Source: an uncultured bacterium
GTDB taxonomy: Bacteria > Patescibacteriota > Gracilibacteria > UBA1369 > PNNO01
Direction: 5' to 3'
NCBI GenBank assembly: GCA_963704705.1
Contig: OY969931.1
Span: 1,260,001-1,292,000, forward strand
DNA: 32,000 bases
Shown here piece by piece: positions 16,561 through 16,740 of this stretch (position 1 is the first letter of the stretch; every line of letters starts with the position of its first letter). A program made the translations under genes and the position numbers. A model generated the notes under the pieces. That model was not told the origin of the DNA. It did no database searches and saw only the letters and a list, made by a program, of their open reading frames with translations.

Positions 16561-16740
16561 TATAAGATCACTCGGTAATATAAGATCACTCGGTAATTCA
16601 GGATCACTCGGTGATTCAGGATCACTCGGTAATTCAGGATCACTCGGTAATTCAGGATCACTCGGTAATTCAGGATCACTCGGTAATTCAGGATCACTCG
16701 GTAATTCAGGATCACTCGGTGATTTAAGATTGCCGAATTA
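16561..16740. repeat. 18-bp tandem direct repeat array, 9 well-conserved units plus 1 degenerate unit
   Basis: Units 1-2 are TATAAGATCACTCGGTAA. Units 3-9 are TTCAGGATCACTCGGT(A/G)A, at 16597, 16615, 16633, 16651, 16669, 16687 and 16705. The degenerate unit TTTAAGATTGCCGAATTA lies at 16723. The array starts on the base after the stop codon of the upstream gene. Units 1-9 each contain GATC and there are no unique spacers. Confidence 0.95.

Follow-up and report, generated by a model that had tools for sequence, protein, structure and literature searches.

A strictly phased palindrome array beside a sigma-factor operon: a probable REP-type element of a RAYT family in a CPR genome

Transposases of IS200/IS605 elements recognise small hairpins of single-strand DNA that are flanked by short cleavage motifs, and IS608 cuts and inserts beside TTAC. 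The closest described counterparts of the locus reported here are the REP, BIME and REPIN palindromes with their RAYT transposases (REPtrons), known from E. coli YafM/TnpA-REP (structure 4ER8) and from P. fluorescens SBW25 (PMC2817692, PMC3116915, PMC6006769). A canonical REP is a hairpin, with a stem of 7-20 bp and a loop of 2-5 nt, that has GTAG or GTGG 0-2 nt to its 5' side; a W-Q pair belongs to the GTAG-reading region of typical RAYTs, and movement of whole REPtrons is said not to occur (PMC6006769). The literature also records tandem arrays of REPs and REPINs as well as REPs whose stems have only 5 bp (PMC3116915, PMC3733652), and intragenic copies of Thauera-type REPs have been reported (PMC3733652). 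Our literature search found no paper describing RAYT/REP systems in CPR bacteria, the single co-mention of the two concerning an archaeal locus.

We analysed a 32,000-nt stretch of DNA (hereafter, the window) from a CPR genome, here called G000, which consists of a single contig of 1,374,545 bp with 35.5% G+C and 99.4% completeness and is about 91.5% coding by rough ORF calls. The window contains an array of 18-nt units, and the reading that we favour with good confidence, from sequence comparison, is that it is a head-to-tail cluster of a miniature REP-type element belonging to the family of a RAYT-type transposase, R1 (ATYAC-NNN-GTRAT, 18-nt phase). Most likely, it is neither a regulator-binding array nor a methylation switch.

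The array and its dispersed relatives

The array and the two genes on either side of it are as follows (window coordinates):

15826-16560, plus strand: sigma-partner gene, 244 aa, without a Pfam match, present in 12 of 13 genomes of the taxonomic family
16561-16596, plus strand: array units 1-2, TATAAG followed by ATCACTCGGTAA
16597-16722, plus strand: array units 3-9, TTCAGG followed by ATCACTCGGT[A/G]A, with G in units 3 and 9 only
16723-16740, plus strand: decayed unit 10 (read as a palindrome, ATTGCCGAATTAT at 16729-16741)
16841-17497, plus strand: secreted repeat protein gene, downstream of the array and syntenic in relatives

By direct reading, nine 18-nt units lie head to tail at 16561-16722 and are followed by the decayed tenth. 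Tandem Repeats Finder placed the array at 16566-16724 (period 18, 8.8 copies, 95% matches, score 283), by far the strongest tandem repeat in the window. After their first six bases, units 1-9 are alike (ATCACTCGGT[A/G]A throughout), and the inner units comprise five identical copies. The units can also be read in an alternative and more natural register, as a 13-nt palindrome, ATCAC-TCG-GT(A/G)AT, plus a 5-nt spacer. The palindromes then start at 16567, 16585 and so on to 16711, and the spacers are ATAAG once, between units 1 and 2, and TCAGG seven times. Compared by eye, the decayed unit shows three mismatches to an inverted-orientation unit, ATTACCGAGTGAT, which closes the three-unit cluster upstream of R1 (genome 85410-85458). 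The upstream ORF stops with TAA at 16558-16560 and the array begins at the very next base, while 100 nt separate its end from the next ORF. Thus, re-reading and Tandem Repeats Finder confirmed the array as the first-pass annotation had described it, with its units, its start behind the stop codon, its distance of about 100 nt to the next gene and its frame-1 stops, and the GATC noted in each of units 1-9 was likewise found by direct reading. Two other classes of repeat were considered and rejected: a CRISPR array, since the spacers are 5 nt long and identical with none unique, and a coding repeat, since frame 1 is closed in every unit (by TAA or TGA) and there is neither a start codon nor ORF context.

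An assembly artefact had been named as a possible source of the array. Both array junctions, with identical sequences, were found in an independent short-read assembly of ERR11571143 (Logan), so the junctions are real and not the product of a single assembly. The Logan contigs break within the identical inner units of the array: one contig stops within unit 3 and another starts within unit 8. The inner-unit count is therefore that of the single-contig genome assembly alone.

When the genome was searched for the core ATCACTCGGTRAT, a check proposed in the first-pass annotation, the core proved to be a dispersed repeat tied to a RAYT-type transposase, which that annotation had not noticed. The word GATCACTCGGTRAT has 26 exact matches in the genome and its reversed control none, and ATYAC-N3-GTRAT has 53 matches as against 4-10 for four scrambled controls. 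These 53 matches group into 17 places, with 12 loci of the ATYAC type, and in every multi-unit place the spacing is exactly 18 nt. Perfect 5-3-5 palindromes have their next neighbour at a distance of 18 nt 27 times in the genome and five times in a shuffled genome, each other distance in the 13-25 range being seen one to eight times. For the wider type xTxAC-N3-GTxAx, we found 16 phased clusters holding 60 units, compared with one pair for the control pattern; 13 of the 16 clusters are intergenic and the three exceptions lie in frame in mutS and in a tsaB-like gene. All families of this type together amount to about 60 units. A typical dispersed element has two to four units with G/C-rich 5-nt spacers and usually begins directly after a stop codon or between divergent genes. 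The cluster at genome position 300025 holds TCAGG and trailing TTAAG spacers, like the window array, and such spacers common to several loci point to copies of one element rather than to independently evolved binding sites. Some dispersed clusters have GTAGG or GTGGG within the spacer, and the window spacers (TCAGG and ATAAG) have no GTAG or GTGG on either strand. The family to which the array belongs is dispersed and mainly intergenic, brackets R1 and is private to the lineage.

Outside the genome, little of the same kind was met. Rfam gave no match at E up to 1 in the window region 14000-17600, and an exact two-unit search of metagenome contigs gave no match. A three-unit pattern searched across 185,579 species returned 11 loci, two of which, both from one Patescibacteria SAG and identical in sequence to clusters of a genome of the same genus (G001), are of the same kind. 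Five others were inspected and comprise two coding repeats and three look-alike arrays in unrelated taxa; no RAYT was found within the 11 loci, up to 8 kb each. The look-alikes are 18-bp 5-3-5 palindrome arrays in a Bradyrhizobium sp., a Spirochaetia MAG and a Chitinophaga MAG, with the words ATCAC-TAA-GTGAT, ATTAC-ATC-GTAAT and ATCAC-TTT-GTGAT and without a RAYT homologue in their 8-kb loci. Their resemblance may be coincidental, as the search pattern forced this architecture.

The units inside genes were also looked at. In mutS (G000:C1:254431-256989, minus strand), four in-frame palindrome units lie in domain III and read LLGN, LLGN, SLGN and LPGN. In G002, a second genome of the genus, units of other sequence occupy these four codon positions of mutS. 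The first pair keeps the length found in other genera and may be native coding sequence that resembles the repeat or has been converted to it; the second pair lies in an indel-rich stretch. In the tsaB-like gene (G000:C1:411927-412565), four in-frame units encode KSLSDLGSLGDLGSLGDRTLLGN. At this site the gene is 12 residues (two units) shorter in G001 and G002 and 15 residues shorter in G003 and G004, indicating that the number of 18-nt units varies inside a conserved gene. Together with the five identical inner units of the array, this difference between species fits the recent expansion and VNTR-like behaviour that had been suggested at first reading.

RAYT-type transposases and their palindromes

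The two other largest clusters of the genome bracket R1, a 140-aa ORF at genome 85.5 kb:

Genome 85410-85458: cluster upstream of R1, three units
Genome 85934-86180: cluster downstream of R1, 14 units, the largest array in the genome

The middle unit upstream of R1 is the main unit of the window array, and among the units adjacent to R1 three are CGTTA-spaced and ten CCGCA-spaced. The GC skew of the genome is too slight for its origin and terminus to be placed, and with them the orientation of the two long arrays relative to replication. R1 matches Pfam Y1_Tnp (PF01797) with 49.5 bits, for a cut-off of 23, and NCBIfam REP_Tyr_transpos (NF047646) with 67.2 bits (E 1.3e-18), which is below the curated cut-off of 80 bits. 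With an IS200 model it reaches 15.8 bits, far under its score with the RAYT model. Its best PDB sequence match is 4ER8, E. coli TnpA-REP. An AlphaFold model of R1 built on 15 relatives has a pLDDT of 92.9, and its top fold match is again 4ER8 (TM 0.73, rmsd 3.2 A), compared with a TM of about 0.61 and an rmsd of about 7.5 A for the IS608 and ISDra2 TnpA structures. The HFH motif, the Tyr of YIxxNP (YIAQNP in R1) and the Asn four residues on are invariant in the 15 relatives and align in R1 with HMH, Y115 and N119 of 4ER8. W94 and Q95, which read GTAG in E. coli, are not kept and are F-E/Q in the R1 family, a replacement in keeping with the lack of a GTAG tag on the units of the window array. 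By these matches, R1 is a Y1/HUH transposase of RAYT type and a candidate partner of the ATYAC-N3-GTRAT family.

G000 has four RAYT paralogues, R1-R4. The other three are 46-55% identical to R1, and the paralogues are 42-56% identical overall. Three of the four (R1, R3 and R4) have a private palindrome family at 18-19-nt phase. R3 has TTACTWAGTA-type palindromes on its flanks at 19-nt phase (28 in the genome, 26 of them intergenic), and R4 has AGACC-N-GGTCT palindromes on its flanks at 18-nt phase (16 in the genome, 13 of them intergenic). One paralogue, R2, and one cluster of the R3 type lie in the window:

6978-7406, minus strand: R2, RAYT paralogue, 55% identical to R1, not the cognate of the array
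7477-7505, plus strand: hairpin upstream of R2, 13-bp stem, arms unique in the genome
14182-14230, plus strand: second phased cluster of the window, ATTACTAAGTAAT, CTTACTAAGTAAC and a partial third unit, TTACTWAGTA (R3) type

The cluster at 14182-14230 begins on the stop codon of a lipoprotein gene. Orthologues of R2 in G001 and G004 are located on the same contig as the sigma-partner gene and at matching distances from it. This fits vertical descent of the R2 clade (G000, G001 and G004), whose support is 95/97 and 100/98.

RAYT homologues were found in seven of the 12 other genomes of the taxonomic family and in none of 28 genomes sampled from other families of the order. On one or both sides, most of the 19 family homologues have palindromes of 11-13 nt, and each gene has a palindrome sequence of its own. 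In a phylum-wide sample, 97 of 301 genomes have a RAYT homologue, and about eight of 11 inspected phylum loci have a longer palindrome, of about 15-25 nt, that is repeated on either side of the gene. Within the family, nearly all RAYT homologues also have an AT-rich block, TTTTTTAGAAAAATTT / AAATTTTAGAATTTTTT, between the upstream palindromes and the start codon (for example at G000:C1:85460-85507 and at window 7410-7470), which is kept although the palindromes differ. This block may be a shared promoter or a part of the element.

The insertion site and its regulatory context

The sigma-partner and secreted-protein genes are adjacent throughout the taxonomic family, and a block beginning some 80 nt ahead of the downstream ATG is retained in all relatives, whether or not they carry an insertion. 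Between the stop codon and this block, the genomes show the following states:

G000: about 190 nt of repeat-derived sequence
G001 (same genus) and G007-G011 (other genera): gap empty, the stop codon lying within about 30 nt of the conserved block
G002 (same genus): a different 18-bp array, with a unit on TAGCC-W-GGCTA, about GGTAGCCWGGCTWTGTGG, running into a stretch of N
G003 (same genus): a complete RAYT gene, encoded on the other strand, preceded by two CTTAC-TCG-GTAAR units and followed by three
G004 (same genus): one CTTAC-TCG-GTAAR unit after the stop, with an orthologous RAYT abutting the promoter block, in a rearranged locus

In G003, the stop of the sigma-partner ORF is the TAA of the first repeat unit. 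The arrangement found there means either that a gene-plus-repeat unit moved whole or that it was lost cleanly elsewhere. As relatives range from an empty gap through repeats alone to a RAYT gene with repeats, the site is a hot spot for insertions and the array is not a conserved regulatory part of it. A separate observation concerns an orphan CTTAC-CGA-GTAAG pair at G000:C1:1335775-1335805, which is of the palindrome type flanking the RAYT clade of G003 and G004 (G003_C99/G004_C3b). In the homologue tree, G000 has no orthologue of this clade.

Three further features of the window describe what surrounds the array:

15217-15248, plus strand: second copy of the promoter-like motif, at the head of the ECF sigma gene
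16716-16752, plus strand: end of unit 9 and inverted decayed unit 10 as a terminator-like hairpin, 9 pairs and a loop of 3, followed by a T-rich run (pattern scan)
16759-16790, plus strand: promoter-like motif, TGAAAGA-N15-TTGTATTAAT, conserved ahead of the secreted-protein gene in all relatives

A first, stricter promoter pattern gave no genome match, and a scan with the relaxed pattern TGAAAGA-N15-TTGTA[G/T]TAAT found exactly two sites in the whole genome, these two copies. As the motif occurs at just two sites, the scan suggests that the ECF sigma factor is autoregulated and that its sole other target is the secreted-protein gene at 16841-17497. The array sits between the stop codon of the operon and the -35-like element and damages neither.

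The folding of the units was considered next to this context. A single unit barely folds as DNA (-1.3 or 0 kcal/mol). Adjacent units can pair as a 13-bp stem round a 5-nt loop, with only about -4 kcal/mol for the window array. At R1, the three-unit upstream cluster closes with a perfect 13-bp stem followed by seven T, and the whole 61-nt cluster as DNA reaches -15.1 kcal/mol (z -8.1). As RNA, the whole window array can fold back on itself (-64 kcal/mol, z -3.8). By analogy with REPs elsewhere, it is plausible that the array acts as a terminator or mRNA end.

Origin of the array and comparison with known systems

The arrays have a block structure: in the window, two ATAAG-type units are followed by seven of the TCAGG type (including the five identical ones) and then by the inverted decayed unit. 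Such blocks suggest that a small founder was amplified locally and stepwise, one 18-nt unit at a time. We propose that the cut-and-join reactions of a RAYT on single-strand DNA would have placed a founder of two or three units, like the dispersed triplets, behind the stop codon and ahead of the next promoter. The founder would then have grown in 18-nt steps by replication slippage or unequal exchange, and pairing of neighbouring units as 13-bp arms round a 5-nt loop would favour this growth. The effect on the host would probably be a by-product. Going by pattern scans, it would consist of a hairpin-rich 3' tail and a terminator-like end on the sigma/partner mRNA, with the sigma operon pushed about 190 nt from the sigma-type promoter of the next gene. 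Array growth may be due to slippage or to the transposase. A bolder version, which we hold to be improbable, is that the RAYT recognises the tag-less 13-nt palindrome and itself adds units at a fixed 18-nt register, so that the array would be an enzyme-built, length-variable insulator or terminator and not a slippage product, and the whole gene-plus-repeat unit might still be mobile. If this were true, enzyme-built arrays of adjustable length would also occur in frame within genes, 18 nt being six codons with one frame open.

The array might also be the relic of a resident REPtron, a RAYT gene having once stood at this site and been lost, while what was left of its flanking repeats later expanded. 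Such a relic departs from the main reading in its history alone. It draws on G003, where two units, a RAYT gene and three units lie exactly between the partner stop and the promoter block, on the orthologous RAYT that abuts the same block in G004, and on the fact that the RAYT-proximal arrays are the largest in G000 (14 units beside R1). However, the units of G003 and G004 are CTTAC-TCG-GTAAR and not ATCAC-TCG-GTRAT, and G002 has a third sequence type. Moreover, the site is empty in G001, which is closer to G000 by partner-protein identity (63% versus 54-55%), and in five genomes of other genera. Independent insertions at a hot spot are the simpler account of these states, and the relic is thus an unlikely history. 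The same empty sites bear on the reading, raised in part by the first-pass annotation, of the array as a set of binding sites for a dimeric DNA-binding protein (an operator, an iteron array or a centromere-like site) that tunes the secreted-protein gene. The 5-3-5 palindromes do look like sites for dimeric helix-turn-helix proteins, 19 nt separate the array from the promoter-like motif downstream of it, and several HTH proteins are encoded nearby. But the orthologous promoter is conserved where the array is not, and units of the family also follow stop codons, separate divergent genes and form in-frame parts of mutS and the tsaB-like gene, the largest clusters flanking a transposase gene. An 18-bp spacing would in addition put successive sites on different faces of the helix. 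Finally, no Rep or Par genes are adjacent, the neighbours being an ECF sigma factor, its partner, the secreted protein and a DUF134 protein. We therefore consider a binding-site array very unlikely.

If the array were simply a microsatellite or VNTR that slippage produced in place, with no link to a mobile element, this would account for the near-identical inner units, which imply recent local amplification. It does not account for the presence of the unit, in the same phase and with some of the same spacers, at roughly a dozen further loci: the unit pre-exists there and so did not arise at the window site. A sub-variant of this explanation, raised at first reading, takes the phased GATC sites as a methylation-sensitive switch, and GATC is indeed present in all nine units. 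It occurs in 22 of the 23 units of the two long arrays, as against nine of 25 dispersed units of the same family, and it arises where G precedes an ATCAC arm or C follows a GTGAT arm. The genome as a whole shows no excess or shortage of GATC, with 3960 sites observed and 4507 expected from its base composition. The genome was also searched for a Dam-type methylase, and only a weak Dam-family (D12) match (20.7 bits for the stretch, 27.8 with its frame neighbours) and an unrelated N6/N4 methylase were returned. The switch is not supported by these results, according to which GATC in the array units is incidental, and slippage in place, with or without the switch, is the least probable of the explanations weighed here. 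As a main explanation of the array, none of the three functions raised at first reading (regulator binding, a GATC switch, a VNTR that modulates the secreted-protein gene) is thus supported.

On the favoured reading, a cluster of the REP-type element of the R1 family, the tempting but wrong interpretation as an operator array or methylation switch is removed from a regulatory locus. Several RAYT/REP partnerships exist even in a CPR genome of 1.37 Mb that is 91% coding, and their small, strictly phased units are easily missed by REP finders that demand a GTAG tag and 7-bp stems. Such arrays interrupt short-read assemblies, as seen in the Logan breaks in the G000 array and in the run of N at the G002 array. 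A hot spot with empty, repeat-only and gene-plus-repeat states is moreover a natural experiment on the movement of the element.

Compared with IS200/IS605 TnpA (IS608 and ISDra2), the R1 model has the same Y1/HUH fold, and TTAC, the target word of IS608, also lies within the ATTAC arms of G000 units, which is a lead only. Unlike these elements, R1 has no TnpB partner, and the paralogues, at 42-56% identity, are not near-identical IS copies. The array differs from iteron and partition-site arrays in that no replication initiator or ParB/ParR-type gene lies beside it, and from Dam-dependent GATC phase switches in that GATC is not a conserved part of the repeated site (nine of 25 dispersed units). 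Likeness to the Thauera GTAG-1 repeats and head-to-tail REP dimers (Di Nocera et al. 2013, PMC3733652) is greater: these have 5-bp stems, were noticed as tandem repeats and form clusters of singletons reiterated in tandem. They bear a GTAG tag, unlike the window units, and the two were set side by side by description.

The closest likeness is with the REPtrons. As there, the palindromes are short, mostly extragenic and often located just after stop codons, each of several RAYT paralogues (R1, R3 and R4) has one private repeat family, and the gene is bracketed by its own repeats. R1 keeps the HUH and Tyr residues and, in the model, a 4ER8-like fold; tandem arrays of nearly identical units are found as in REP systems, and R2-type genes stand at matching positions in three genomes of the genus. 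Unlike canonical REPs, the G000 units are 13 nt long with a 5-bp stem and a 3-nt loop and keep strictly to a phase of 18-19 nt, a GTAG/GTGG tag is absent from the window units, and in R1 other residues stand in place of the W-Q pair that reads it. Classical REP families typically count more than 100 copies per genome, up to hundreds, whereas G000 holds about 60 units. BIMEs alternate in orientation; the window array has regular spacing, but units 1-9 share one orientation (TCG loop) and only the decayed unit 10 is inverted. In contrast with described REPtrons, species differ in whether one conserved site holds a complete RAYT-plus-repeat unit, and the host, unlike described REP hosts, is a 1.37-Mb CPR genome. 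To the known kind, the analysis adds the strictly phased 13+5 architecture and the hot-spot comparison.
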